Shown: positions 1,914-57,734, counted from the stretch's first letter. The stretch is DNA of 57,734 nucleotides from a bacterium (GCA_030697525.1 JAUYPW010000030.1:1-57734); one strand, 5' to 3'. Notes: a model not told the origin generated them from the letters alone. Numbers and translations: made by a program.

Positions 1914-4523
1914 TTACTTGTAACCCAGGAAGGATTTCACCGACCCCAGATCCCAGTCTTTTTTATTCAGCCAGCCGTGGCCGATATATTGAGACTTCCC
2001 ATCCGGAAGTTGTTTTATAACCCGGTAGACATCTTTGCTCGGATGTTCTAGGTCAAATATCTGGCCCTTAGCATTTTCGGCCACAAAAAATATTTTGTCT
2101 GATACCGGCAATTCATCTTTGACCAAAACATCCTTTGTAAAACCTAGCTGGCGGTCAAAGTTTGTTAATGCTTCGCGAAGCTCATCGGGTGTATCTATGT
2201 ATGACATGGTTTTGCCAAACGTTCTGGAAAATGCCCAAGCTTTCTCATTGGACAAATTCAAGCCGGTGGTTTTACTTTCATTCAGAAGATAATTATACAC
2301 AAAGGCCTGTCTTTCTTTTTCACCACTAAGCGCTTCAAATGCTTTTTCCAAATCACTTCTTACGGGTTCCGGCGCAGATTCCGGCAAGGGAATTTCTGCG
2401 GGAGGAGTTTCGGGAGCAACAGGAACGGCGGCTACTTTCGCTTCCGGCAAACCCGCCTGTCCGGCAGGCAGGAATCCGGGCTCAATCCCTGATTCGGCTT
2501 TAAAATCCAAAACCCATTTGCCGCCTACTTTATAAATAAAAACTTTATCATATTTGCCGCCGCCAATATCCGGCCCCCCATGCACTAAGTCTTTTACTCT
2601 ACCCCCCTGCGCTTCGGCAAGGGTGTTTACCAAATTAGCCGTTTGTGTCTCCGCCCACTTATCTAAAGCCGTAACATCATTTAAATCTCCGGTGTAGCCC
2701 ATCTCGCGGGCGTGCGCCTCTACAATATGTTTGGTGGACTGCCAGATTGAGTCATGACCTATAATTCCCTTGTTATCAATCAAGTCCTCCCACGGCACGG
2801 TTGTTTTTGGTGTCTCTCCAGCGCCGAATAAAATCCCATTGAGCCATTCCTCAAATGTCATACCCAACCCAGTTACCTCCATTTTCCCATAACGATCTAT
2901 CATCTGCTGGGCGGTGGCACCATCCTTAGCCTCAATTCTTTCCAACATATATTTCAATATTTTTTTTGCCTCGTTCTCGTCCAATCCATCTTTCAAATCA
3001 ATGCCGAGCAATTCCTCCCAAGACGGACCATTTTCCCCAACTATATCCGGCAATTTATCCGCCGCCCCTCCCGCCATCCAGTCCCAGAATTTATCAAAAG
3101 CTGGTTTGAGCATAAGAAGAGCGGTTCCCGCTACCACTGTTTTTCCCGCATAGTCGCCGTACTTTCCAAGCATGGCCAGGGTATCTACTGCCCCCGCCTG
3201 CCCCAGCATGCGGTCAAAATCATTCAGACGCTTGCGATAATTATTAAACACCCTTTCCTTTTCGTAATCTTTTTTGGCCTTGTGCCAGTCTGTGCGGCTT
3301 TCTATTTTGCCAATTTTTTTATTTAAATTATTTACCGATTTTTCTATATGCCAGGTGAAAAAACCGTTTGAGATTTTGCTAATCAAACCGGCTTCCGGAT
3401 TATTTCGCAGACGATCTTTCAGGCTCACGGGTATGTCTTCCTGATAGGCTTTTTTGAGTGCCTCCACTCCAACTCCGTTTCCTCCTTTTTCCGAATCGTA
3501 TATCCCTCCAGCTTTTTCATATACCCTTTTGGCCTCTTCTATCGCCTCGTCCGCGTCCTGAATTCTGGTTTTTTCAATCGCTTTTTCACTTTTTAGACGA
3601 GCTTCTTTGAGCATGTCAGACGTTACTGCGGCCCCTGCCGCCAGAATAGACACATATCTCAAAGGTAGGGTCGCCGTCCAGCCGATGACATCGGCAACGG
3701 GCCTCGCAACATTGTAAACATTTTTACCCACATATCCGACATTGCCCAGAGTTCTCCGGCGGCCTTTTTCAATATCCTCCATTTTCTTGTCCGCCACTTC
3801 GGCATCCCGAACTGATTTCTCCCAAATAGCAGACAGAAATCTGTCCGTAAATCCTCGCTCTTTGGGATCAATTTTTCCTTCGGCCCACTTTACCATAGCC
3901 GCCAATCTTTCCCCTTTGCCTCTTTCCATCCAGTAGCCGATATTACTCAAACTGAAACCCACCCCCTGACGAACCTCTTCCGGAAGTTTAGCAATCTCGG
4001 CTTCAATCGCTTTTTGATTGTCCGCAACTTGTTCGGGCAGAGCCACCACCTCCGGGGCAACCCCAGCCGCTACCATAGCTTCCGGCGTTACTTCTGCCGG
4101 AGCCGGCTCTATTTTTACAGCCTCAACCGTTTCTTCCTTTTTTGGCTCCTCTCTGGGTTCTACTTTGGGGTCTTCTTTTTTCTCTTCTTTATTGGCCCCC
4201 TTCATTTGCGCGTATTCTTTCTCCGCCTCCTGCCAATCCCATTTCTCCATAAATTTTTGCGCCTCTGGAGTCCACGGGGTAATGCCATTATCCTCTAGTA
4301 TCTTATCAGTCTTGTCAGCCGGAATCTCTCCTCTCATTCTTTTCTCAAATATATCGTAAGCCTTTTTTCTTATCTCCTGTTCCTCTTCCGGCGTCCATTT
4401 TTTAGGCTCTTCTTTGGTTTTTACCGGAGTCTCCGCCCTGTCCGGTACACCTTCAAATGTATCTGAACCTACCGGAGACACTCCTTTTAAATCAGGTATG
4501 TCTTGGTTCTCAAAATTTTTCAT
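1914..4523 (-). CDS. large hypothetical protein (869 aa) with a charged N-terminal module that is paralogous to 7330..8220
   Basis: Long uninterrupted ORF. No catalytic motif recognised. Lys/Glu-rich N-terminus, Pro/Ala-rich linkers and two to three hydrophobic stretches mid-protein. Confidence 0.7.
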   Translation of the reverse strand: MKNFENQDIPDLKGVSPVGSDTFEGVPDRAETPVKTKEEPKKWTPEEEQEIRKKAYDIFEKRMRGEIPADKTDKILEDNGITPWTPEAQKFMEKWDWQEAEKEYAQMKGANKEEKKEDPKVEPREEPKKEETVEAVKIEPAPAEVTPEAMVAAGVAPEVVALPEQVADNQKAIEAEIAKLPEEVRQGVGFSLSNIGYWMERGKGERLAAMVKWAEGKIDPKERGFTDRFLSAIWEKSVRDAEVADKKMEDIEKGRRRTLGNVGYVGKNVYNVARPVADVIGWTATLPLRYVSILAAGAAVTSDMLKEARLKSEKAIEKTRIQDADEAIEEAKRVYEKAGGIYDSEKGGNGVGVEALKKAYQEDIPVSLKDRLRNNPEAGLISKISNGFFTWHIEKSVNNLNKKIGKIESRTDWHKAKKDYEKERVFNNYRKRLNDFDRMLGQAGAVDTLAMLGKYGDYAGKTVVAGTALLMLKPAFDKFWDWMAGGAADKLPDIVGENGPSWEELLGIDLKDGLDENEAKKILKYMLERIEAKDGATAQQMIDRYGKMEVTGLGMTFEEWLNGILFGAGETPKTTVPWEDLIDNKGIIGHDSIWQSTKHIVEAHAREMGYTGDLNDVTALDKWAETQTANLVNTLAEAQGGRVKDLVHGGPDIGGGKYDKVFIYKVGGKWVLDFKAESGIEPGFLPAGQAGLPEAKVAAVPVAPETPPAEIPLPESAPEPVRSDLEKAFEALSGEKERQAFVYNYLLNESKTTGLNLSNEKAWAFSRTFGKTMSYIDTPDELREALTNFDRQLGFTKDVLVKDELPVSDKIFFVAENAKGQIFDLEHPSKDVYRVIKQLPDGKSQYIGHGWLNKKDWDLGSVKSFLGYK

Positions 4524-12910: not shown

Positions 12911-15268
12911 CTACAATACAAAATTAATAAGCTTGTCTGGCACAAATATTACTTTCTTCGGCTTTCCAGTCAGATGGGTTTTCACTGATTCTAGTGAAGC
13001 AGCCTTAGCTTTTGCCTCCTCTTCACTAATGCCTTTGGCGGCGGACACACGCCCTCGGAATTTGCCATTTATCTGCACTATCAGCTCAAAAGTATCTTCT
13101 TCAAGCATGGCTGGATCAAACTCCGGCCATTTTTCTTTATGAATAGACTTTTTATTTTTTAAAACGCCACACCATATTTCTTCTGTTATGTGCGGCGCAA
13201 AAGGGGCCAGAAGTTTTAAGAAAACTTCCCAGTCTTCTTTGGCAACCGTCTCCTCCTCAAATTTATTCAACAGAATCATCAAAGCCGAAATAGCTGTGTT
13301 GTATTGGAGATTTTCAATATCGTTCGTAACTTTTTTTATGGTTTTATGAATGAGTTGTTCAACCTCTCCTCTGTCATTCTGAGCAGAGCGAAGAATCCCT
13401 GCCTTGCCGGCAGGCAGGTCATGAGATCCTTCGGGCTTCACCCTCAGGATGACACGTGGTGTCAGTTTCCAGACTCTTTCCAAGAATCTGGTGATTCCTT
13501 TAATTCCCGTATCACTAAAATCCCCCCCTTGTTCAAAGGGTCCTAAAAATAACAGGTACATTCGCAAGGCGTCCGCGCCGTATGCTCTTATATATTCATC
13601 CGGATTTACCACATTCCCACGAGATTTGGACATTTTTGCCCCGTCTTTTATAAGAAGTCCGTGCGCCCTGAACTTTTTAAAAGGCTCTTCAAAATGCACC
13701 AGCTCCCAATCTTTGAAAGCCATAGCCAAAAATCGTACATAAAGAAGGTGCAAAACAGCATGTTCAGCTCCACCAATATACATGTCCACGGGTAGCCATT
13801 TTTTTATTCTAATCTCGTCAAAGGGTTTGCTAAGACCTAAATATCCGAGATAGTACCATGCTGAATCAAGAAAGGTATCCGAGACATCCGTTTCGCGTCG
13901 CGCCCATTCGTTGCATTTCGGGCATCGGACTTTATAAAATTTCTCATCTGTGGCCAGTGGCGACTTGTCCGTGCCCGTAGGCTTGAAATCTTTTATATAT
14001 GGAAGCTTAACCGGTAAATCTTTTTCTGGGACAGGTTGCCATTGGCATTTTTCACAAAAAATCATTGGAATAGGAGGTCCCCAGTAGCGCTGACGGGAAA
14101 TGAGCCAGTCGCGAAGACGAAATTGAATTTTTTTTATGCCCCCGCTCTTTTTTATTCCTTCATCAATTGAGACCAGAGGCGCGTTACTCACCGGCAATTT
14201 AAATTTCTTTGCAAACTCAAAATCCCGCTCGTCATGCGCCGGCACAGCCATGATTGCTCCGGTTCCATAACCCGCCAAAACATAGTCCGAAATCCAAACC
14301 GGAATTTTTTCTTTATTGGCTGGGTTGACTGCCGAAAACCCCGAAAATATTCCACTTTTATTTTTTTCAGTTGATTCATTTTGCCTCTCTTCTAATTTTT
14401 GTTTGATATATTTCCTAACTTCATCTGGAGCTTGCCAGCCCGAGACCTGCCAAAACTTCGCTAATTCTGGCGACACTACGACAAAGGTCGTGCCGAAAAT
14501 AGTATCCGGTCGGGTAGTAAAAACTTCAACAAAATGTTTTTTGTCCTCTTGCCCAGGGACATCAATTAGTGAAAAACGAATCGAAGCTCCTTCTGATTTC
14601 CCAATCCAATTCTTTTGCGCGATTTTTATCCTCTCCGACCAGTCTATGTGGTCTAAATTTTTCAGCAGTTTTTCTGCGTAATCCGTAATTTTAAAAAACC
14701 ATTGCTCTAATTCTTTTTTTATCACCACCGAGTCGCATCGCTCGCATGTGCCGGCAACAACCTGTTCGTCCGCAAGCACGGTTTTGCATCCGGGACACCA
14801 ATTCACACTTGCTTTTTTCCGGTATGCCAGACCATTTTTAAACATCTGCACAAAAATCCATTGGGTCCATTTGTAATAATCCGGTTCGTGAGTAGACAGA
14901 ACCTCATCCCAAGCATAGCCAATACCCAGTTCTTTCAGCTGTTTTTCATATCTATCCGTGGTTTTTTTCATTAAATCCAGCGGATGAGTACCTGTTTTGA
15001 GAGCATAATTCTCGCTGTTTATACCAAAAGAGTCATAGCCTATCGGCTGAAAAACATCACAGCCCCGCATCCTTTGGTATCTGCCGTACAAATCCGCTCC
15101 ACTGAAAGTATAGGCGTGCCCAACATGCAGTCCCTCTCCCGAAGGATATGGAAACATCATTAAATTATAGAAGGGGTTTTTGGCCAATTTTAAATCTGGC
15201 TCATAAACTTTCTCCTTGAGCCATTGTTTTTGCCATTTGGGTTCTATTTCAGACGGATTGTAGCGCAT
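12911..15268 (-). CDS. leuS: leucine--tRNA ligase carrying a 27-codon in-frame repeat insertion
   Basis: The HIGH region (GEGLHVGHAY) and KMSKS are present, and the protein is LeuRS-like throughout. Confidence 0.95.
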   Translation of the reverse strand: MRYNPSEIEPKWQKQWLKEKVYEPDLKLAKNPFYNLMMFPYPSGEGLHVGHAYTFSGADLYGRYQRMRGCDVFQPIGYDSFGINSENYALKTGTHPLDLMKKTTDRYEKQLKELGIGYAWDEVLSTHEPDYYKWTQWIFVQMFKNGLAYRKKASVNWCPGCKTVLADEQVVAGTCERCDSVVIKKELEQWFFKITDYAEKLLKNLDHIDWSERIKIAQKNWIGKSEGASIRFSLIDVPGQEDKKHFVEVFTTRPDTIFGTTFVVVSPELAKFWQVSGWQAPDEVRKYIKQKLEERQNESTEKNKSGIFSGFSAVNPANKEKIPVWISDYVLAGYGTGAIMAVPAHDERDFEFAKKFKLPVSNAPLVSIDEGIKKSGGIKKIQFRLRDWLISRQRYWGPPIPMIFCEKCQWQPVPEKDLPVKLPYIKDFKPTGTDKSPLATDEKFYKVRCPKCNEWARRETDVSDTFLDSAWYYLGYLGLSKPFDEIRIKKWLPVDMYIGGAEHAVLHLLYVRFLAMAFKDWELVHFEEPFKKFRAHGLLIKDGAKMSKSRGNVVNPDEYIRAYGADALRMYLLFLGPFEQGGDFSDTGIKGITRFLERVWKLTPRVILRVKPEGSHDLPAGKAGILRSAQNDRGEVEQLIHKTIKKVTNDIENLQYNTAISALMILLNKFEEETVAKEDWEVFLKLLAPFAPHITEEIWCGVLKNKKSIHKEKWPEFDPAMLEEDTFELIVQINGKFRGRVSAAKGISEEEAKAKAASLESVKTHLTGKPKKVIFVPDKLINFVL
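13373..13453. repeat. 81-nt palindromic GTCAT-type element translated in frame inside leuS
   Basis: Arms are GTCATTCTGAGCAGAGCGAAGAATCCC and the reverse complement of GTCATCCTGAGGGTGAAGCCCGAAGGATCTC. They flank a CCTGCC..GGCAGG mini-hairpin. The element starts and ends exactly on codon boundaries and encodes VILRVKPEGSHDLPAGKAGILRSAQND. Confidence 0.75.
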
Positions 15269-32365: not shown

Positions 32366-32815
32366 ATGAGCAAAGACTTAGCCGAAAACCGCAGAGCAAG
32401 GTTTGACTACGAAATCATGGAGACATATGAGGCGGGAATTGAGTTGCTCGGATTTGAAGTCAAAGCCATCAAAACCGGCAGAGGCAATCTAACCGGCTCT
32501 TTTGCAATAGTAAAAAATAACGAAGTTTTTCTGTTAAACGCCAATGTCCCGCCATACCAGCCCAAAAACGCGCCAAAAGACTACGATCCCCAAAGAACCA
32601 GAAAACTTCTTTTGAAAAAATCCGAAGTCAAAGAATTGCTTGGTAAAACTTCCCAATCCGGACTCACGCTGATTCCATTGAAAATATATTTAAAGCGTGG
32701 TATGATAAAGATATTGCTGGGTCTGGCGCGCCACAAAAAGAAGGGTGACAAAAGAGAGACAATAAAAAAGAGAGAGACTCAAAGAGATATAGATCGAGTG
32801 ATGAAAAAATTTTAG
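32366..32815 (+). CDS. smpB: SsrA-binding protein
   Basis: NRRARFDYEI..., GIELLGFEVKAI and a basic C-terminal tail. It lies immediately upstream of the tmRNA. Confidence 0.95.
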   Translation: MSKDLAENRRARFDYEIMETYEAGIELLGFEVKAIKTGRGNLTGSFAIVKNNEVFLLNANVPPYQPKNAPKDYDPQRTRKLLLKKSEVKELLGKTSQSGLTLIPLKIYLKRGMIKILLGLARHKKKGDKRETIKKRETQRDIDRVMKKF

Positions 32816-33199
32816 GGGATGATCGGCTTCGATGGGTTTTTGAAAACAAAGAATCAAGCTGGAGACGCACGGTGTCTCCACAAATCCTCCGTGCAAACCA
32901 ATAAGTGCAAACTTATTCTCTAACTTCAACAGGCAGCCTGCTTTAGCAACTGCCTAATGAAGTTCCCCGGCTTTACGTCGGGGCATCGGCCAGCTTATGC
33001 TCGTTCGGCTGATTACCGGTGTTATACTCCGAGCTACGCCCCGTGCCACAACTTGTTGTGATTCGGGGTTGGCTTCTCTGACTGCTCGATACGAGAAGCG
33101 ACATTATCGGGTAAAATAGTTCCGATTAGTTGGAACAAAGCTTGTATAAATTCTTTGCTGGATTAAATCCAGACGGGGGTTCGATTCCCCCCATCTCCA
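32815..33199 (+). ncRNA. ssrA: tmRNA (SsrA)
   Basis: The 5' end GGGGAUG pairs with the 3' end CAUCUCC, including the G3-U pair, followed by the discriminator A. T-arm GGGGGTTCGATTCCCCC. The tag reading frame at 32907-32954, GCA AAC ... GCC, encodes ANLFSNFNRQPALATA, followed by a TAA stop at 32955-32957. CCA is not encoded. Confidence 0.9.
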
Positions 33200-33296
33200 T
33201 TACCAAGTTTTTTGAGACACGCAAAGGAGAGCAGGATTCGAACTTGCCTTTTTTGGGGCTTGATGCTATATTTTATACCTAAATAAATTTAAAGCC

Positions 33297-35167: not shown

Positions 35168-35875
35168 TTAGTTCAGGTGTTTATAAAAACCTCCCTCACC
35201 ATAAAGACCTGCCAGTTCTTGCGGATTCAAAACTTCTGCCGGTGAGCCATGACAGATCATTTTCTTATTTAAACAAAGTACACTGTCCGCATATTTATAG
35301 ACTATATTCAATTCGTGAGAAATCAACAGAACTGTTGTGCCCCGCTCTTTCTGCAGTTTACGCAAAAGGTGATAGATAGTCTCCTCAAAACCAACATCAA
35401 TTCCGGCTGTTGGCTCATCAAAAAGCAGAATATCCGGATGATCCAGCATCGCCCAAGCTATTAAAACTCTTTGCATCTGCCCTCCCGAAATCTCTGCGAT
35501 CGGCTTGTTCAGAATACCCTTATCCAGGCCAACCAACTCAAGCTCATGGCTTAGATGTTCGGCGAAGTCCTTTGGCAGTAGCCAAAAATTTTTTGATTTC
35601 AGAGAAAAGAATTCTTTTACGGTGATCGGTATAGATTTATCCACCAAAAATTTTTGCGGAGCGTAGCCTATCTTCATTTTGTCTGCCCAATGTATTTCAC
35701 CCTTATGAGGCAGAAGGCCAGCCAGGGCGCGGAAAAGAACCGTCTTCCCGGCTCCATTGGGTCCTATGATGGCTAACGCCTCTCCTTTTTTTACTGCAAA
35801 AGAAATATCTTTCAGAATGACTTCTGAATCTAAAATTACCGATAAATTTTTTACTTCTAAGACGCAGTTTTCCAT
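35168..35875 (-). CDS. metal ABC transporter ATP-binding protein
   Basis: Walker A GPNGAGKT, signature ISGGQMQRV and Walker B ILLFDEP. Confidence 0.85.
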   Translation of the reverse strand: MENCVLEVKNLSVILDSEVILKDISFAVKKGEALAIIGPNGAGKTVLFRALAGLLPHKGEIHWADKMKIGYAPQKFLVDKSIPITVKEFFSLKSKNFWLLPKDFAEHLSHELELVGLDKGILNKPIAEISGGQMQRVLIAWAMLDHPDILLFDEPTAGIDVGFEETIYHLLRKLQKERGTTVLLISHELNIVYKYADSVLCLNKKMICHGSPAEVLNPQELAGLYGEGGFYKHLN

Positions 35876-43058: not shown

Positions 43059-43172
43059 TGCCCTCGGGCAGATTCGCCCCGTCATTCGACGGGGCGTCCG
43101 GTCGTATGGCCGGACGAACCTCTAGTCTTCGGCTTCGGAGGCCGACGCTCTATCCAATTGAGCTACGGGCGC
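43059..43172 (-). tRNA. tRNA-Arg(CCG)-like gene interrupted in the T-loop by a 40-nt double hairpin; the 3' part pairs poorly (possible pseudogene or chimera)
   Basis: The minus-strand sequence GCGCCCG-TA-GCTC-AATTGGATA-GAGC-G-TCGGC-CTCCGAA-GCCGA-AGACT-AGAGG-TTCG forms a perfect 5' two-thirds with anticodon CCG. Hairpins at 43075..43096 and 43095..43116 follow, and then AATC-TGCC-CGAGGGC-A. Confidence 0.5.
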
Positions 43173-50848: not shown

Positions 50849-51739
50849 TCAGCCATTGAGAAGAATTTTGGTAATAGATTCTACGGGCACAGTTTGCCCG
50901 GTTTTTATTTTAAAGTCTTCCTCAAAAAAGTTTTTGAATTTCGAGACCAACTGGTTGAAAGATAAATTCCTTGAGCTGGCCGTGGCCTTCTTCACCACAA
51001 AGGGATGTATCTTGTGACCGGCGGGTACCGGCTGTTTTCTTTCGGTATAATATTTCACAAGTAAAACTGTCCGACAATGATTGGCAAGATAGCTGAACAA
51101 ATTAAATTCATTTTCCCCCTGTTCCGATAGTTGCAGAAGATCGTTTAGGCCCTGTTTTCTAGAAGTAAAAAAACTGTCGCCCAAACCAAACGCGTTAGTT
51201 CCTTTGAATTCGTCGGGTTTTTCGTAAGATCCTCCTTCTACCAGCATTTTATCCATCTCGTTTGAAACCGCCCAAAGGTCACTACCGATATTTTCCAGTC
51301 TTTCCAGATGAGCGGGAAAGAGTCTTAATCCTCTTTGTTTAGCCTCCTCCGAAATCCAATTTTTTAACTGCGCGCCGGTCAGATTTTTAAACTCTTGGGT
51401 TTTTGCCGCTAGATTTTTAAATTTAGAGAGGGTGTCAGCGACAATCTCTCTGTCCCATAAAACAACCGTCGTGTCTTTTGAATCCTCAATAGATTTCAGT
51501 TTTAGCAACAAATTTTGCGGATCTAAAAGTTTGGAAAAATTCTCAATCACTACCATTTTTTTGTCGCTAAAAAGAGAGCTCGCCCCCAAGCATTGCGCGA
51601 TATCCGCTGTCGCGCAATTAGTATCTTCGGCATCAAGCCTATAGCAACTAACCGCCTTTTGAGAGAAAGGCTCTTTGGTTATCTCTTTCAACTTCTGTCT
51701 GCTCCTATAAGTGTCTTGTCCAAAGAGTAAATGGATCAT
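50849..51739 (-). CDS. holA: DNA polymerase III delta subunit
   Basis: Size and N-terminus (MIHLLFGQDTYRSRQKLKEI) fit HolA. The sequence is divergent. It is convergent with rpsT, with a 1-nt gap. Confidence 0.6.
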   Translation of the reverse strand: MIHLLFGQDTYRSRQKLKEITKEPFSQKAVSCYRLDAEDTNCATADIAQCLGASSLFSDKKMVVIENFSKLLDPQNLLLKLKSIEDSKDTTVVLWDREIVADTLSKFKNLAAKTQEFKNLTGAQLKNWISEEAKQRGLRLFPAHLERLENIGSDLWAVSNEMDKMLVEGGSYEKPDEFKGTNAFGLGDSFFTSRKQGLNDLLQLSEQGENEFNLFSYLANHCRTVLLVKYYTERKQPVPAGHKIHPFVVKKATASSRNLSFNQLVSKFKNFFEEDFKIKTGQTVPVESITKILLNG

Positions 51740-51767: not shown

Positions 51768-51992
51768 TCAAAGAAGCTCTTTTAATTCATCCTTAGTAAT
51801 ACCAGCATCTCTGATTATGCTTATAACAATCTTTGGGTGCAGGATTTTGGCGCCATGAATTGGTATAGTCACCCTTTTGTTTTCCGAATTTTTATAAATC
51901 TCATGACTGCCGCTCTGGCGTGACAACACAAAACCAAGCCGTTTAACGACTTTTATAATTTGCTTAGAAGTTACGCGGGGATCACGCGACAT
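51768..51992 (-). CDS. hicA: HicA-family type II toxin
   Basis: 74 aa. KQIIKVVKRLGFVLSRQSGSHEIY... (YcfA/HicA dsRBD-like motif with the catalytic His). Confidence 0.8.
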   Translation of the reverse strand: MSRDPRVTSKQIIKVVKRLGFVLSRQSGSHEIYKNSENKRVTIPIHGAKILHPKIVISIIRDAGITKDELKELL

Positions 51993-51995
51993 TTA

Positions 51996-52220
51996 TTAAA
52001 CTGCCACTTCAACCGTAGAAATACTGACCGACCTGTCCTTTGGTAAACTTTCCCTACCTTTATGCCTATCCTCCACATGCAGTTTTATGGCGTCTTTTAT
52101 GTTCTCAATCGCATCCTCATAAGTCTCGCCTTGAGTATAGCAACCTTGTAATTCAGGACAGAAAGCAAAATAGCCGTGTTTATCATGCTCAATTATGATT
52201 GGAAAATTTCTATATTCCAT
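51996..52220 (-). CDS. hicB: HicB-family antitoxin (UPF0150 fold)
   Basis: 74 aa. FPIIIEHDKHGYFAFCPELQGCYTQGETYEDAIENIKDAI. Confidence 0.8.
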   Translation of the reverse strand: MEYRNFPIIIEHDKHGYFAFCPELQGCYTQGETYEDAIENIKDAIKLHVEDRHKGRESLPKDRSVSISTVEVAV

Positions 52221-52302
52221 ATAACTAAATAATACTAGAAAGGTCTAAGTTTCGCAAGCTTCTATCCTAAGGTGTTGTACTTGTCGCTGTTGTCGTACTC
52301 AT

Positions 52303-52366
52303 GTCATTCTGAGGGAGCGGAGCGACCGAAGAATCTGTGTTAATATTCCCCGAGCTTGTCGAGGGG
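52303..52366. repeat. GTCAT-type GC-rich repeat modules
   Basis: GTCATTCTGAGGGAGCGGAGCGACCGAAGAATC is homologous to the leuS insertion arms. It is followed by CCCCGAGCTTGTCGAGGGG. The spurious ORF 52267..52455 runs through this region. Confidence 0.65.
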
Positions 52367-52497
52367 CTACCACAAATCCCCGCTTTCAAACTCATTGCCC
52401 CTGTTTCTACATTTTCTATAACCAAACACCCGGCTTTTCCGAGTTTATCGTACACCGTAATTCCTGTCGGCGTTTGCGGTGAGCCTACTTCTAATTT

Positions 52498-53022
52498 TCA
52501 GTTCTGCGGCATAAATTTTTTCCATGACCGTTCCAGATTGAGCATTTTCCGGCGGATAAAAGTATATCTTTTGATCAAGTCTTCAAAAAATTCATGTTCA
52601 ATTTTAGTATCGCAAATATCGCGAAACTGCTCAATATAGACAATCGCCTTGTTGCAATTCAACATTGCTTTTTCTAAAGCCGCTATGCCGGCTGTGTGAT
52701 CGCCGAATCTCTGCGAATGAGCTTCGGCAATAAGATGAGGAATCCCTAAAACACAGGGTAACATATTTTTTAAAATAATTTCATCAATAAATAATCCTGT
52801 GCCGATAATTGAAACCGATGTTGCGTCAGTCCCTTGCCGAGATTGCAATTTCGGCTGGGACTTGCTAGAGAAATCTCGGTCAATCTCGGGAGCGAGACTT
52901 TTTACCTTCTTTGCAATCAAAACTGATATCTCAAGAGTTTTTTGATATACTTCCAAATCCTGAAAACTGCGCAATGGTTTCTTGGGATAAAAACTGGTTT
53001 TGGCTTGTTTACTAAAATACAT
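52498..53022 (-). CDS. four-helix-bundle protein (23S rRNA IVS protein / Avd-like family)
   Basis: The N-terminal SFQDLEVYQKTLEISV hallmark and later HLIAEAH (NIAEG-equivalent). A low-complexity insertion is present. Overlaps the upstream gene by 11 nt. Confidence 0.7.
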   Translation of the reverse strand: MYFSKQAKTSFYPKKPLRSFQDLEVYQKTLEISVLIAKKVKSLAPEIDRDFSSKSQPKLQSRQGTDATSVSIIGTGLFIDEIILKNMLPCVLGIPHLIAEAHSQRFGDHTAGIAALEKAMLNCNKAIVYIEQFRDICDTKIEHEFFEDLIKRYTFIRRKMLNLERSWKKFMPQN

Positions 53023-54187
53023 AGTTCGAGGGTTTGTTTGGCCTAATAGAATCTACGCGGTATCTTGTTTCGTTTATCCGGTATGTCCCTTCCTTTGTTC
53101 TTATGTTTTTTCTGCGGCTTTTTTTCTTATAGACTGCGTGCAGGGGGAAAAACTCAAAATAATTTTTTTCGTCAAACCAGGCGCATTTGAACTCATACAT
53201 CCTTAGGCCAGTCAGCCGTGACAGGGCCATGGCGTATAGAGTAAGCTGTTCAATGGGTTTTTCTTTGGCGGCATTCGGTTTGTAGTCCAAGATGTGAATT
53301 TGGCCGTTGCGTATTTGCAATAAATCAATGTGGCCCGTGATGAGAGATGGCAAGTCCTTTTCTTCCATTTTTTCCATCACGTTTCCGCGCAATTTTTTGT
53401 ATACTTCAAAACCGAGTTGGGTTTGCATATGCGCCAGGTCTTCCCGCTTGATGTAAATCGGCACTTCAGCCGCGACGGTAACTGTGTCGTTGGCCAGCAT
53501 GAAATTCTGCAGGACATTGTGCCGGTCTTTATTTTTTTTGACCGCCTGCAGAACAAAAGCCGTCAGCCGATTGGCATAATTAGTTTTAGAACGGACGATC
53601 ATCCCTTCTTTATTAAATTTCAAAGGGGCTTCGGAAGCGCGCAAGCCATCTTGAAAAAGCTGGTGAGGGCACTCGCTCGGCACCAAAGACAGATATTCAA
53701 CAAGTGGTCCGAAACGGGCGTGCTTTATATCCTCACGCACGATAAGGTTGGCTTTGGCGCGGTGGAAACGGAAGCGATATAACTGCCGATGGGCCAAAGT
53801 GGCCGTAACCACAGTATCTAAAGGCGAAAACATTTTTACAGCATACGGACGATAGCGATGATACCGGCATAAATCTTTGTACTCTTCCACCCAGTTGGCC
53901 AGAGAAGACGGCTGGATTTCAAAACCCAGTTTTTCTTTTACTATCCGACAGCTTTTATCCAACGAGAAACCTAGGTTATAATAATTCATTCCGGCGATAA
54001 TAGCTTCTGCGGAGTACTGCCTGCCCTTGATTATCCTCGGAGTAAAAGTCTTCAGGCACGAGCGGCACAAATACAGTTGTACTTGTTCCTGCTTATTGTA
54101 ACGCAGACCTCGTTTGACGGTGTTGGTTGAAGAACAATAAGAACAACTTTTGTTAGGGAAAATCATTAATTTATTTGATTTCTGCAA
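53012..54187 (-). CDS. zinc-ribbon (IS1/IS1595 InsA-like) plus PD-(D/E)xK (RecB/Cas4-like) nuclease-domain protein
   Basis: N-terminal CSYC-x17-CRSC followed by KTFT. C-terminal GHID(288)LLQIRNGQIHILD(301)YK(303) and QLTLY (the QxxxY motif). Overlaps hicA by 17 nt, or starts at M8 (54166). Confidence 0.6.
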   Translation of the reverse strand: MQKSNKLMIFPNKSCSYCSSTNTVKRGLRYNKQEQVQLYLCRSCLKTFTPRIIKGRQYSAEAIIAGMNYYNLGFSLDKSCRIVKEKLGFEIQPSSLANWVEEYKDLCRYHRYRPYAVKMFSPLDTVVTATLAHRQLYRFRFHRAKANLIVREDIKHARFGPLVEYLSLVPSECPHQLFQDGLRASEAPLKFNKEGMIVRSKTNYANRLTAFVLQAVKKNKDRHNVLQNFMLANDTVTVAAEVPIYIKREDLAHMQTQLGFEVYKKLRGNVMEKMEEKDLPSLITGHIDLLQIRNGQIHILDYKPNAAKEKPIEQLTLYAMALSRLTGLRMYEFKCAWFDEKNYFEFFPLHAVYKKKSRRKNIRTKEGTYRINETRYRVDSIRPNKPSNYVF

Positions 54188-54359
54188 CCCCTAAATCTCT
54201 GCAAATTTTCCTAGCAATAAAACCATTTATTTCTCTGTGCCTTGGCACGCTAGAAGTATTTTTCGTTGGAAAATTAAAAAAGATGCTGTGTTTAGCACCT
54301 TCCCTAAGCAGAACACAACCTTCTTTTATCAAATGATGTATTAGATCTTTCCTCTTCAT
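54171..54359 (-). CDS. hicA: HicA-family type II toxin (second copy, different subfamily)
   Basis: 62 aa. MKRKDLIHHLIKEGCVLLREGAKHSIFFN...VPRHREINGFIARKICRDLGV. Confidence 0.8.
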   Translation of the reverse strand: MKRKDLIHHLIKEGCVLLREGAKHSIFFNFPTKNTSSVPRHREINGFIARKICRDLGVAEIK

Positions 54360-54365
54360 TTAAAC

Positions 54366-54599
54366 TTAAACGCCAATGCTTATGGGTTCGCGTTTAACCG
54401 TTCCTTTTCTCACGGTTTCTGTGCGACTGACTATCCTGTTGGTCTCTAATACCAGAGATAGAGCGTCTTTTAGGTTTTCTTTCGTCTCTTTTAGGGTGCG
54501 GCCCTGGGTATTCACCCCAGGAATTTCCTCAACCCAGCCCAAATACCACTTGCCACTTTTTTTATAGACCGCGGTGAAATTTGAAATTAGATTAGTCAT
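54366..54599 (-). CDS. hicB: HicB-family antitoxin (second copy)
   Basis: 77 aa. KSGKWYLGWVEEIPGVNTQGRTLKETKENLKDAL. Confidence 0.75.
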   Translation of the reverse strand: MTNLISNFTAVYKKSGKWYLGWVEEIPGVNTQGRTLKETKENLKDALSLVLETNRIVSRTETVRKGTVKREPISIGV

Positions 54600-54611
54600 G
54601 GTTCATATATG

Positions 54612-54639
54612 ATTATACCAAAATAGAATTATAATGCAA
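54612..54639 (-). promoter_or_regulatory. candidate hicB promoter (TTGCAT, 16-nt spacer, TATAAT) with a very short leader
   Basis: Read on the minus strand. The -10 element ends 12 nt before the ATG at 54599, and no Shine-Dalgarno sequence is present. Confidence 0.35.
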
Positions 54640-54645
54640 ATTTTC

Positions 54646-54722
54646 TCATCTCACGACTTTTGCACCCCTCTATCTCACGAGTTTTGGAAATTTAGCGCTC
54701 TTGTCCAAAACTCGTGAGATGA
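54646..54722. repeat. nested inverted repeats with a 16-bp perfect core
   Basis: ATCTCACGAGTTTTGG (54672-87) and CCAAAACTCGTGAGAT (54705-20). An outer TCATCTCACGA lies at 54646-56, with its complement at 54712-22. Confidence 0.7.
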
Positions 54723-54753
54723 AATATCATGCAATTTCGGCGGTTTTCCAGCC

Positions 54754-57734
54754 CTACGGCATGGTGCTTGTGGCTGTAGTATCCGGCGTACTGCTGGCGG
54801 TTGTTGATTGGCTCGCGCATTCTCCTTTTGTCTTTACCCACTCCCCATTAGTAATACTCACACAATAAAGTTCTCCGGTGGCGCTATCCTTAATTTGCAA
54901 ATAATCAGTTGTGATTTTCTTGGCCGTCAAGGTTTCCACGACTAAATCTTTTAGAGTTACCAAACCATCTTGAATCCATACGCCCAACTTTTTTAATTCC
55001 TCAAGCACACCAGAAAAAGTGAGACCCCCTCCACTAGAATTTTGGCTTATTTTCTGTAAATCTTCCACCTTTAGGTTCAACTCCTGTATCGCTTTGATAT
55101 CTAGAGCAATGAGGTTGGAATAGTCAATACCGTCAATCAGTCCCTGATCGTCATGCATGACCACTTCTGGAATCACCTGATAAACATCTTCGGCAATCAG
55201 ACCGAGACGTTTGGCGGTTCGGGTGGTGCTGGAGCTGTTTATGTAGGTGAAAGACACGGGTTCCAACTGAAGAACATCTTTTAGTCCGTAAGTAAGAGGC
55301 GCGATGCTCTCCTTGAACCGACGGGAAGAAGTGCCGCAGGCGCCGTCTTTAATCTCTATTTCCCCAGAGGCGGCAATGGTGCAGAGAGTGCGGTCATCTG
55401 TTACCGCAACCGAGGTGGTAAGGCGCATGGTGCCAGATACATGCAAAGTTTGGAGGGGGTTCGTCGTCCCGATGCCGATGTTGCCGTTGGTATCTATGGT
55501 TAAAGCCGATCTTATGTCTGCCTGTCCCAAGTTTACATATGTAAAAACCCAGCCTTGATAAGCCGAAGAACCATCAGGCAAAGTTATACTCGTGGTCATA
55601 GGATGAAATGGCACTGAAGTTGGTGTCGGCAAGTCCACATCATGTGTCCCCATCTTGCCATTAGCCGGATCAAAGGCCTCAAAGGCGTGACCGATAATTT
55701 TTTCACCCGGTAGAGCTTTTCTACCTACACCGGGAATGGAGGAGGCAGTGATGGGATCGCCTGATTTTAAGACACCGCCTTCGGTGGAAACTTTTACGGG
55801 AGTGTAGCCGATGGTGGCCACTTTTTTAGCATTGTAAACTTGTTCGAGTTCGGCATCAGTTTTTTTACCAATATCGCTAACATCTTGCATAATGTCGTAA
55901 GAAACACCCACCAATCCCGGTTTTAAAGTAACCACGCCAATCAACAACCATTCCGAACCTTTAGTAGCTTTGGTGGCTTTTCTGTCGTTATCGGTTGAAA
56001 ACATAACTAATTCTCCGGGTTCATAATCGGATGGATTACCAACTACTCGTGTCCACTCGGCCACGTCGGCCGGAGTGGTGGCGGCGTTGTCGGAAAGCAT
56101 TGTGCCGTCGCCTCGGAATATAAATTCTGTGTCTCCACTATTACCAGAAAGATACTGGCCAAAATACCAACCCGTTCCTGCGGCTGTGGTGGTATCTAAT
56201 TGAATCATTTTGCTCGCAAAACTTGAAGAGGTGTTATCTGCATTAAGATATATATCGTCAGTACCTGAACCTTCTATTTTTAGTTTTCCATCCGGCGTGC
56301 TATCCCCAATACCCACATTCCCATTATTATCTATGTCTAATCTAGATAATTTATCTGAACCAGTCACAGCATTACCGCCCATAGCCGCAGATTGAATTAT
56401 AGAAAAAGTGCCAAAACCATTATCATTAGTTTTAATCGCCCAGTTTCTAGCTCCCGAATTAGCGCTTCCAGAAGTCAAAGCGATTGAGGGAACTTGAACT
56501 GTATTGTGAACTACTATACCTAAGTGATCTGTGGAAACACTAGTAGCTAATATCGCTGACGGACTCGTCGTCCCAATCCCGACGTTGCCGTCATTTTTAA
56601 TTGTCATTCGAGCCGACAAGGAAGAATCAGCGTTAGCCTTGTTATAGAACATAATATTACCCTCATTATTACCAGTAGAGACATTTTCTACACTAATAGA
56701 AGCTGAAACTGTTCCCTGATGAGCAAAACTGATAATACCATATCCTCCTGCCGACACTGTTCTTGAGCCGTTCAATTCCAAACGACCAATAACATTGCCT
56801 GTCTGTCCAGCACTAATAGTCAAAGCTAAACCATTCCCGCTGATATTAGGCGTCGTCGTCCCGATGCCGACGTTGCCGTCTCCGCGAAGAGATAAAACAT
56901 TTGTGTAAGCATCAGGAGTGGGACTATAACCATTATGTAATAGAAAATCCATTTTATTCGATGAGCCAACTGCTGGATCGCCACTGGTATGTGAGGTTTG
57001 TATTTTATGCCTATAGTCTGTGGGATAACCCGTATAAGAAAAAATAAGACTGTCTCCTAAGTTGCCGGCTGTGCCTCCTGCTTCTATTTCGGCAACACCT
57101 TTAACATGCAGTGTAGTGCTTGGCTCTGTCGTCCCGATGCCGACGTTGCCCGACCCCTTCACCACAAACAGAGGGGTGCTTGTTCCTTCATCTCCAATCA
57201 CAAACAAATTAGTGGCAGTAGTATTGGCTTCCACAGAAAGGAGTGCATACGGACTCGTCGTCCCGATGCCGACGTTGCCGTTAGGATCAATTCTCATCCT
57301 TTCACCATCGCCACTGTCGCCAGAGTTTGTTGTCCAAAAAGTAATAGCGGCTTGCTCATCAGTGGATGTTTGGACTGTCTGTAAAAAATATATGCCTGCT
57401 AAAGAATTAGAACTTGAAACATCCAGAGAAACTATGCCTGTAGCAATATCCGTGCCTGTGTTTGAATTTCTAAGAAATATTGAATCTCCATATAAATTTC
57501 CTACATCCGGAGCATTACTGTCGTCGGTAGTTATGGTTAAACCAGCAGTAGTACCTGTAATAGTCATTGGATTGGTCGTACCTTCAACATCCAAAAGGGC
57601 ATCGGGGGATGTATCCCCAATCCCGACGTTGCCCGACCCCTTCACCACAAACAAAGGGGTGCTTGTTCCTTCATCTCCAATCACAAACAAATTAGTGGCA
57701 GTAGTATTGGCTTCCACAGAAAGGAGTGCATACG
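54754..57734 (-). CDS. tail-fibre-like repeat protein with a C-terminal S74 intramolecular-chaperone domain (5' end outside the window)
   Basis: Seven GNVGIGTTxP-type repeats. The C-terminal GTSSRRFKESIAPL...GLIAEDV...IDYSNLIALDIKAIQEL (about 55054..55329) matches the endosialidase/tail-spike chaperone domain. The reading frame stays open to the window edge, and the track's M at 57717 is an internal GTG. Confidence 0.8.
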   Translation of the reverse strand, partial: YALLSVEANTTATNLFVIGDEGTSTPLFVVKGSGNVGIGDTSPDALLDVEGTTNPMTITGTTAGLTITTDDSNAPDVGNLYGDSIFLRNSNTGTDIATGIVSLDVSSSNSLAGIYFLQTVQTSTDEQAAITFWTTNSGDSGDGERMRIDPNGNVGIGTTSPYALLSVEANTTATNLFVIGDEGTSTPLFVVKGSGNVGIGTTEPSTTLHVKGVAEIEAGGTAGNLGDSLIFSYTGYPTDYRHKIQTSHTSGDPAVGSSNKMDFLLHNGYSPTPDAYTNVLSLRGDGNVGIGTTTPNISGNGLALTISAGQTGNVIGRLELNGSRTVSAGGYGIISFAHQGTVSASISVENVSTGNNEGNIMFYNKANADSSLSARMTIKNDGNVGIGTTSPSAILATSVSTDHLGIVVHNTVQVPSIALTSGSANSGARNWAIKTNDNGFGTFSIIQSAAMGGNAVTGSDKLSRLDIDNNGNVGIGDSTPDGKLKIEGSGTDDIYLNADNTSSSFASKMIQLDTTTAAGTGWYFGQYLSGNSGDTEFIFRGDGTMLSDNAATTPADVAEWTRVVGNPSDYEPGELVMFSTDNDRKATKATKGSEWLLIGVVTLKPGLVGVSYDIMQDVSDIGKKTDAELEQVYNAKKVATIGYTPVKVSTEGGVLKSGDPITASSIPGVGRKALPGEKIIGHAFEAFDPANGKMGTHDVDLPTPTSVPFHPMTTSITLPDGSSAYQGWVFTYVNLGQADIRSALTIDTNGNIGIGTTNPLQTLHVSGTMRLTTSVAVTDDRTLCTIAASGEIEIKDGACGTSSRRFKESIAPLTYGLKDVLQLEPVSFTYINSSSTTRTAKRLGLIAEDVYQVIPEVVMHDDQGLIDGIDYSNLIALDIKAIQELNLKVEDLQKISQNSSGGGLTFSGVLEELKKLGVWIQDGLVTLKDLVVETLTAKKITTDYLQIKDSATGELYCVSITNGEWVKTKGECASQSTTASSTPDTTATSTMP
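57142..57251. repeat. 110-nt intragenic direct repeat, copy 1 (copy 2 at 57625..57734)
   Basis: The two copies are 483 nt (161 codons) apart and identical except for one synonymous position (CTG vs TTG on the coding strand). Copy 2 is cut by the window end. Confidence 0.8.

Follow-up and report, generated by a model that had tools for sequence, protein, structure and literature searches.

A candidate homing-type nuclease cassette with a four-helix-bundle partner and toxin-antitoxin passengers in giant surface-protein genes of Patescibacteria

Fractured genes carry a free-standing endonuclease gene between the two halves of a split intein (Dassa et al. 2009, PMC2677866). The same endonucleases can also be inserted on their own, with no intein, and their genes have hairpins in the 5' untranslated regions (PMC2677866). 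The published cases are DNA-metabolism enzymes, mostly of phages, and have a single inserted gene that encodes a GIY-YIG, HNH or Vsr-like (EDxHD) endonuclease (PMC2677866). Two PD-(D/E)xK homing endonucleases, I-Ssp6803I and I-Bth0305I, are intron encoded; the latter is Vsr-like and has an EDxHD active site (PMC3239194). Here we describe a nuclease cassette in a 57,734-nucleotide (nt) stretch of bacterial DNA (GCA_030697525.1 JAUYPW010000030.1:1-57734, hereafter the window), in which we examined positions 51768 to 54722 and their flanks. The reading that we favor, with more confidence than doubt, is that the window holds a mobile nuclease cassette of the homing type in its stand-alone form. 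On this reading the cassette belongs to an undescribed family, is widespread in Patescibacteria, carries toxin-antitoxin hitchhikers, and is not a defense system. Cassette loci resemble fractured genes in that a free-standing nuclease gene lies between two co-oriented open reading frames (ORFs), one ending in an N-intein and the other starting with a C-intein (27 loci). The nuclease gene also stands alone without an intein, and its upstream control element contains a hairpin-forming repeat.

The minus strand of the window between 50849 and 57717 encodes, in this order, a tail-fiber-like gene, an inverted-repeat region, hicB1, hicA1, an ORF of 391 amino acids (aa), an ORF of 174 aa, a 230-nt stretch, hicB2, hicA2, and holA. 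An earlier note on this DNA had outlined six minus-strand ORFs, and all six are present at the positions it gave. It had proposed that hicB1, hicA1, and the two following ORFs are a four-gene unit, either a defense system or the cargo of a noncanonical mobile element. The region does behave as a noncanonical mobile element, one that is tied to the tail-fiber-like gene. The cassette consists of a leader, an optional cargo slot, the nuclease gene, and an obligatory four-helix-bundle partner gene, and it would target giant surface-protein genes of Patescibacteria. The cassette core and the host gene parts in the window are as follows.

54754..57717, minus strand: giant tail-fiber-like surface-protein gene, 3' part (at least 987 aa, running off the contig end), the host gene of the cassette
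54635..54730, minus strand: conserved cassette leader with three TCACGA boxes (61.5 bits with leader model R1)
53012..54166, minus strand: zinc-ribbon/RecB-like PD-(D/E)xK nuclease (NF050000 and PF12705; ORF open back to TTG 54187)
52498..53022, minus strand: four-helix-bundle partner, 174 aa (AlphaFold/Foldseek fold match; 11-nt overlap with the nuclease stop)
52267..52497, minus strand: 3' end of a tail-fiber-like gene, read as displaced and decaying (76 codons, no start codon; cterm profile, E 2e-14)

From its N terminus, the nuclease consists of a zinc ribbon, a helical region, and, at the C terminus, a RecB-like PD-(D/E)xK core. In the 391-aa ORF, an IS1/IS1595-type zinc-binding domain occupies residues 15 to 49 (NF050000, 28.5 bits against a cutoff of 28), and the PD-(D/E)xK domain occupies residues 229 to 329 (PF12705, E 1.9e-6, 28.5 bits against a cutoff of 22). 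Across 22 diverse homologs, H286, D288, K303, Q314, and Y318 never vary and D301 hardly does, and HID, DYK, and QLTLY are strictly or almost strictly conserved. The AlphaFold model (predicted local distance difference test, pLDDT, 76.9) has the nuclease domains of AddA and RecB, Cas4 SSO0001, and MGME1 as its best Foldseek matches, with probabilities of 0.87 to 1.0 for AddA, RecB, and Cas4. The D...(D/E)xK...QxxxY motifs and the corresponding fold are those of RecB/AddA-type domains. The zinc ribbon and the RecB/Cas4-like core with its three motifs, both proposed in the earlier note, are thus supported by NF050000, PF12705, and motif conservation, and the nuclease assignment held in profile as well as structure comparison (PF12705; AddA, RecB, and Cas4 in Foldseek).

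The likely start codon of the nuclease is ATG 54166, 4 nt past the hicA1 stop, because the call in a public collection is 384 aa long (P0001) and the ortholog in L005, the closest relative of the window locus (nuclease 87% identical), has its start at the corresponding ATG. An overlap of 17 nt with hicA1, as had been described, would apply if translation began at TTG 54187. Matches to IS256-type zinc-binding domains were also found in the nuclease, and the full IS1 and IS6 models scored 16 bits against cutoffs of 100 to 125. Several nuclease homologs are named "transposase-like" by the Joint Genome Institute (JGI). By sequence, the only solved-structure relative was an Rpb9-like zinc ribbon (E 0.016). 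We considered and rejected Cas4 as the identity of the nuclease: its nuclease domain has one conserved Cys (C335) and no four-Cys Fe-S cluster, and the PADLOC Cas4 match is weak (E 0.003). No cas genes were present in any locus whose neighboring genes were examined.

The 174-aa protein has no Pfam or NCBIfam match. Its AlphaFold model (pLDDT 82) consists of four long helices and a disordered 20-residue insert (residues 52 to 71). The best PDB match of the model is 2RLD, of the S23/23S rRNA intervening sequence (23S-IVS) family (probability 1.0, template modeling score 0.84). Avd, a protein of diversity-generating retroelements (DGRs), is also among the matches, through the DGR ribonucleoprotein structures 8UB7 and 8UB8. 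Two homologs of the partner, P0230 and P0239, match PF05635. The four-helix-bundle assignment made earlier therefore holds through the matches to 2RLD and Avd, although the window protein is divergent and matches no profile; judged by its predicted fold, it appears to be a divergent 23S-IVS/Avd-like member.

Scanning one genome per species yielded 350 nuclease relatives; 80 loci were fetched and 4 were added by exact look-up, which gave 82 unique loci. In all 75 loci whose contigs leave room, the four-helix-bundle gene lies directly downstream of the nuclease gene on the same strand. The distance from the end of the nuclease ORF to the partner start has a median of 5 nt, and in the window the previously noted 11-nt overlap was confirmed, with a start codon that is conserved in homologs. 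With both genes present in every one of these 75 loci and mostly overlapping or abutting, the nuclease and the four-helix-bundle protein are a co-expressed, conserved two-gene unit. Of the larger co-expressed unit suggested before, this pair stands, and hicBA1, which is absent from L005, falls away.

About 1,990 nuclease homologs were found at 50 to 88% identity, and they belong to Patescibacteria wherever the source name states a lineage. Clustering at 50% gave 361 nuclease clusters (E<1e-30). Some metagenome-assembled genomes (MAGs) hold two or three copies. Paralogs from the same MAG are each other's nearest relatives, and their DNA homology is mainly confined to the cassette (84 to 87% in L036, L043, and L049). 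In a neighbor-joining tree of the nuclease, intein-bracketed and stand-alone contexts are intermixed. A phage origin was considered and rejected, as no homolog was found in IMG/VR.

In most loci, a giant tail-fiber-like ORF is directly adjacent to the nuclease on its upstream side, and contigs often break inside this ORF. Custom profiles place the cassette between N- and C-intein halves in about a third of the loci (the 27 mentioned above), and three more have one half. In many loci the giant ORF ends in C[VL]TGDT...TT.NHPYL, and the ORF after the four-helix-bundle gene opens with ...VYDIEVEGTHNFVGNGI[IF]AHN/T, where the slash, here and below, marks a junction. TIGR01445 (N-terminal splicing region) was above its cutoff in the three loci tested (L001, L039, and L053), TIGR01443 (C-terminal splicing region) scored 37 to 41 bits against a cutoff of 15.6, and PF14890 matches too. 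The intein has Cys1 at its start and Thr at the +1 extein position. It is inserted at a conserved host repeat, GIGTT.P..KLHVEG / CVTGDT ... AHN / TY..GNVGIGTT, and the intein-free junction at this repeat would read ...GIGTTSPLAKLHVEGS/TYISGNVGIGTT.... The window's own tail gene contains the same GIGTT/KLHVEG/GNVGIGTT-type insertion-site repeat. The nuclease continues the reading frame of the upstream ORF, uninterrupted by a stop codon, in seven loci, of which six are intein-type.

Several loci show variations on this arrangement. The giant ORF upstream of the cassette in L047 itself opens with a C-intein (L047:4-132); therefore, one giant gene can be fractured more than once. A contiguous intein in a giant tail-like ORF (L027:5372-6649) has an NYN domain (PF01936, E 1e-20) where the homing endonuclease domain normally sits. 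Free-standing NYN-like genes lie between the four-helix-bundle gene and the C-intein ORF in L041, L045 (PF01936), L072, and L083, and after the C-extein ORF in L080; in this free-standing set, the calls other than L045 rest on similarity only. At L037:1695-2755 and L047:1324-2541, the leader match falls inside a long upstream ORF, and the sequence that follows encodes a C terminus ending in ...GFRCAK. This end may resemble the C-type-lectin/formylglycine-generating enzyme-like ends of DGR target proteins.

In the window, as in 15 loci that were fetched, the cassette comes after a complete giant-gene C terminus, ...GIT[LV]YD..G..YC......G.C.... The tail gene of the window has a PF13884 Peptidase_S74 domain at residues 797 to 853 (E 3.7e-11), matches to PHROG tail-fiber families, and GNVGIGTT repeats, and its C terminus fits our custom cterm profile. 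A second, diverged giant-gene C terminus of 76 codons starts directly at the four-helix-bundle stop codon (52497-52267) and aligns with the intact C termini of L005, L055, and the window's own tail gene. The free-standing nuclease of the window thus also lies between gene parts, with the intact gene on one side and its displaced 3'-end copy on the other. The stretch from 52267 to 52497 had been described as GTCAT-type repeats. It does hold a single GTCAT repetitive extragenic palindromic (REP)-like unit, GTCATTCTGAG, at 52303-52313, and this unit lies within the 3'-end remnant that makes up the stretch. A second C-terminal copy behind the cassette is also present in L055 (115 codons, nearly full) and L005 (42 codons). 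These second copies have diverged too far for target-site duplications or for the template and variable repeats of a DGR. We read them as former 3' ends, pushed aside by a cassette that brought flanking gene sequence of its own, and now in decay. A DGR was considered separately and rejected: the region has no reverse transcriptase ORF, and there is no near-identical repeat between the tail gene 3' end and the downstream DNA. The repeats found between 50800 and 57734 are GNVGIGTT units of the tail gene itself.

We infer that the nuclease would cut cassette-free copies of the giant genes and that recombinational repair from a cassette-bearing copy would then copy in the cassette together with flanking gene sequence. 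At split-intein loci, protein trans-splicing would keep the host gene functional. In the window, a complete replacement 3' end precedes the cassette, so the host gene would stay functional while the old end decays at 52267-52497. The four-helix-bundle protein would most likely bind and modulate either the nuclease or the DNA on which the nuclease acts, by analogy with Avd and the reverse transcriptase of DGRs. We see an even chance that the nuclease and its partner are an undescribed two-protein homing endonuclease family that colonizes giant genes, splits them with apparently hundreds of natural split inteins, replaces their 3' ends, and has a leader-proximal slot that gathers RNase toxins (HicA, MazF, and NYN).

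The leader is present in 73 of the 82 loci, in one copy each, upstream of the nuclease and on its strand; its sequence model, R1, was built from 17 leaders. Nested inverted repeats and a candidate promoter had been reported in this part of the window, and both were found. The repeats are a perfect 17-nt pair inside the leader (54672-54688/54704-54720), a 31-nt pair with 77% complementarity, and a 15-nt direct repeat with copies 24 nt apart; the promoter is TTTGCA-17-TATAAT. Box 1 (54719-54712, inverted) has the consensus T(A/C)TCACGA, and box 2 (54680-54673) and box 3 (54656-54649), in the opposite orientation, have the consensus TCGTGA(G/T)AT, with fixed spacings of 39 and 24 nt. RNAalifold applied to the 17 leaders found 6 invariant pairs and no covariation, and Rfam had no match to the leader. 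For these reasons we rejected an RNA element and read the boxes as candidate protein-binding DNA sites. A further possibility, that the leader is the nuclease N terminus, was also rejected, on the grounds that cargo genes or stop codons intervene in many loci, that box 1 is inverted with respect to boxes 2 and 3, and that the spacing is fixed at the DNA level. By analogy with InsA in IS1, the boxes would most likely be bound by the nuclease's own zinc-ribbon/helical domain, giving autoregulation.

The remaining features of the region lie in the slot between the leader and the nuclease and downstream of the 3'-end remnant.

54612..54640, minus strand: sigma-70-like promoter TTTGCA-17-TATAAT (10 of 12 positions plus a TG extension; a consensus match only)
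54366..54599, minus strand: hicB1 antitoxin (PF21748, E 1.8e-6)
54171..54359, minus strand: hicA1 toxin (PF07927, E 3e-8; phrog_353)
51996-52220, minus strand: hicB2 (PF15919, E 2e-11)
51768-51992, minus strand: hicA2 (PF07927, E 5e-18)
50849-51739, minus strand: holA (TIGR01128, E 1.6e-34)

Two nonidentical hicB-hicA pairs and holA had been identified from the sequence. The profile matches confirm all of them (PF21748/PF07927 and PF15919/PF07927 for the pairs), with both pairs adjacent and in hicB-hicA order and only weakly similar to each other. The first pair, hicBA1, is an insertion of about 460 nt (approximately 54631 to 54171) between the leader and the nuclease, because the DNA homology of L005 to the window (54725-54638, then 54139-52502) resumes on both sides of it. 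L005 has no hicBA1, and its leader and nuclease are 34 nt apart. The promoter-like site lies at the junction of the leader and the hicBA1 insertion. Among the 71 loci in which the leader and the zinc ribbon could both be placed, only the window and L054 have hicBA between leader and nuclease, and hicBA-like genes were found near the nuclease in only four loci (L054, L081, L017, and L065). In L081 hicBA lies upstream of the leader and is therefore an independent insertion. We conclude that hicBA1 is passenger cargo that does not belong to the conserved cassette; its probable role is that of an addiction module cotranscribed with the nuclease. The second pair, hicBA2, sits between the 3'-end remnant and holA and is an independent toxin-antitoxin pair, unrelated to the cassette.

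Distances between the leader and the zinc-ribbon codons have a bimodal distribution, at most 136 nt in 31 loci and 173 to 1,692 nt in 40 loci. The slot has no gene in 31 loci; the cargo identified in the longer gaps is listed here.

PemK/MazF-like toxin: 7 loci, including the window's sister loci L006 to L008
HicBA: 2 loci (the window and L054)
NYN: 2 loci (L014 and L066)
Bro-N: 3 loci
LPD3-like: 3 loci
GIY-YIG: 1 locus
Canonical 23S-IVS four-helix-bundle gene: 1 locus

The link between toxins and the nuclease cassette is facultative but not random, because RNase-type toxins occupy the slot repeatedly (PemK/MazF in 7 loci, HicBA in 2, and NYN in 2). The PemK/MazF-like genes stand alone in the slot, with no room for a separate antitoxin gene (L006:2317-2703, L007:756-1151, L008:2155-2505, L057, L075, L079, and L080). 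More widely, small selfish genes crowd the intergenic spaces of the cassette in L081, L005, and L054. A Gp49/HigB-like gene with an XRE antitoxin shares this space in L081 (5032-5729), L005 has RelE-like pairs at 2402-2837 and 4034-4498, judged by eye only, and L054 has a canonical 23S-IVS four-helix-bundle gene at 1524-1910.

We weighed four other explanations against the homing-type cassette. The nuclease and its partner could be a domesticated recombination or diversification system that starts gene conversion among the repeat-rich giant genes and spare 3' ends, so that surface variation and not selfish spread is the outcome. This would fit the constant tie of the cassette to giant surface-protein genes, the spare C-terminal copies behind it in the window, L005, and L055 (nearly full there, at 115 aa), the strong conservation of the nuclease and its rough congruence with host lineage, and the resemblance of the partner to Avd, the accessory protein of another diversification system. 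However, the spare 3' ends are variably truncated (115, 76, and 42 codons) and the window copy has a REP-like insertion, which points to decay products and not a maintained library. Most loci have no spare copy, and placement within a split intein is a hallmark of a selfish endonuclease gene. We therefore regard domestication as unlikely. Somewhat less likely still is a toxin-immunity or addiction pair, in which a DNA-damaging nuclease would be held by a four-helix-bundle inhibitor; the pair could be a type II-like module or come from a polymorphic-toxin tip detached from the giant protein. The tight two-gene order with overlapping stop and start codons, a neighborhood rich in toxin-antitoxin genes, and the seven loci in which the nuclease is in frame with the upstream ORF, as in Hint-plus-toxin architectures, would agree with it. 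Yet toxin tips and immunity proteins are hypervariable, whereas both cassette proteins are highly conserved. The nuclease has its own leader and a transposase-type DNA-binding zinc ribbon, with no secretion-linked fusion, and the Hint-like segments are true intein halves with matching downstream C-halves, which would splice the giant protein and not release a toxin.

The four-gene HicB-HicA-nuclease-four-helix-bundle system, acting against phages or plasmids, is the defense function proposed in the earlier note, and we now consider it very improbable. Its genes are closely packed on one strand and probably cotranscribed, weak Cas4-like PADLOC matches exist, and RNase toxins recur in the slot (MazF in 7 loci, HicBA in 2, NYN in 2). 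The conserved linkage to hicBA that a four-gene unit implies was not borne out, however: hicBA occupies the slot of 2 of 71 loci, and hicBA1 is missing in L005, the closest relative, as well as in about 97% of loci whose slot could be examined. In addition, the slot is empty in 31 loci, and the cargo families are mutually unrelated. PADLOC-DB 2.0 gave no system match, only weak Cas4-like and Cas13-C-terminal matches, and no cassette has a defense-island context: all lie in or behind giant surface-protein genes, 27 of them between split-intein halves. We find equally little reason to favor an IS-like transposon in which an IS1/IS1595-type DNA-binding domain is fused to a PD-(D/E)xK catalytic domain, as in TnsA of Tn7. 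Such an element would account for the IS1/IS1595- and IS256-type zinc-binding matches, the "transposase-like" names given by JGI, the conserved protein-binding boxes at one cassette end, and the multiple copies per genome. But the nuclease has no DDE domain and scores far below the cutoffs of the IS family models, the boxes are at one end only, with one leader copy per locus, and neither terminal inverted repeats nor the target-site duplications whose search the earlier note had suggested were found flanking the cassette. Insertion is moreover confined to one gene family and, at intein-type loci, to the inside of a single intein, a pattern of homing more than of transposition.

Several observations weigh against the homing-type cassette. 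The nuclease is 55 to 70% identical across Microgenomates and Parcubacteria, which is unusually conserved for a selfish gene, and its tree roughly tracks host lineage (Microgenomates versus Parcubacteria), as would also fit a vertically inherited host function. IMG/VR viral contigs have zero homologs, although the published fractured genes are mostly from phages. No pair of empty and filled sites and no target site were found; for the window locus the empty-site allele was not retrieved, and the only metagenome-contig relative of the holA flank is 29% identical. There is no intein profile match anywhere in the window, and its tail gene ends with a normal C terminus, so that in the window the homing reading rests on the relatives and on the displaced 3' end. 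In a tblastx comparison of upstream with downstream flanks, duplications were found in only a few stand-alone loci. Finally, to our knowledge, known homing endonucleases need no second protein such as the four-helix-bundle partner.

Elsewhere in the window, Rfam matched a tmRNA at 32815-33202 on the plus strand (119.5 bits) and a tRNA at 43105-43172 on the minus strand, and nothing else. The tail gene has a 119-nt direct repeat with 97% identity (57133-57251 and 57616-57734), the second copy of which ends exactly at the contig end. This repeat probably explains the assembly break at the window end, as in many related loci. A REP-like palindromic unit (GTCATTCTGAG ... CTCAGGATGAC) lies at 13373-13453, apparently in frame, inside a 785-aa ORF (12911-15268, minus strand). 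Further GTCAT units are at 35811-35821 and, as noted above, in the 3'-end remnant at 52303-52313, and many also occur near the cassettes of other loci.

Our literature search found no description of the nuclease, of its four-helix-bundle partner, or of inteins in giant genes of Patescibacteria (candidate phyla radiation). If the homing-type cassette is real, it would add an abundant, conserved homing endonuclease family (361 clusters) with an unusual obligatory partner. Four-helix-bundle proteins of the 23S-IVS type are very common in bacteria; the cassette would give them their first functional context outside DGRs and link them to the mobility of intervening elements. The loci are a large reservoir of natural split inteins in nonenzymatic giant surface proteins and could serve protein engineering. 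The arrangement may help explain why contigs of Patescibacteria MAGs frequently break at cassette loci. The hicBA annotation at this locus should not be read as part of a defense system.

Compared with known systems, the cassette shares individual parts with several of them. With I-Ssp6803I and I-Bth0305I it has in common a restriction-endonuclease-fold core in a mobile endonuclease, the activity of the cassette enzyme being predicted. However, the cassette nuclease is RecB/AddA/Cas4-like (D...D-x-K...Q..Y), has an IS1/IS1595-type zinc ribbon, and is accompanied by a partner protein. That partner is like the 23S-IVS proteins (PF05635/TIGR02436) and Avd in its predicted fold and in being encoded inside an intervening or mobile element. 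It differs from them in scoring below Pfam/NCBIfam thresholds, in its disordered 20-residue insert, and in being paired with a nuclease and not a reverse transcriptase. The zinc-binding domain is shared with IS1/IS1595, whereas the DDE domain and flanking inverted repeats of those elements were not found. The two HicBA pairs of the window have the hicB-hicA order and the profiles of type II HicAB modules and, unlike the cassette core, are mere passengers. In contrast to fractured genes, the cassette has giant tail-fiber-like hosts in Patescibacteria, a zinc-ribbon RecB-like nuclease, a constant four-helix-bundle partner, and a toxin-collecting slot, and the window copy has no intein. The cassette therefore differs from the known fractured genes in its nuclease family, its obligatory second protein, its nonenzymatic giant hosts, and its cargo slot for RNase toxins.

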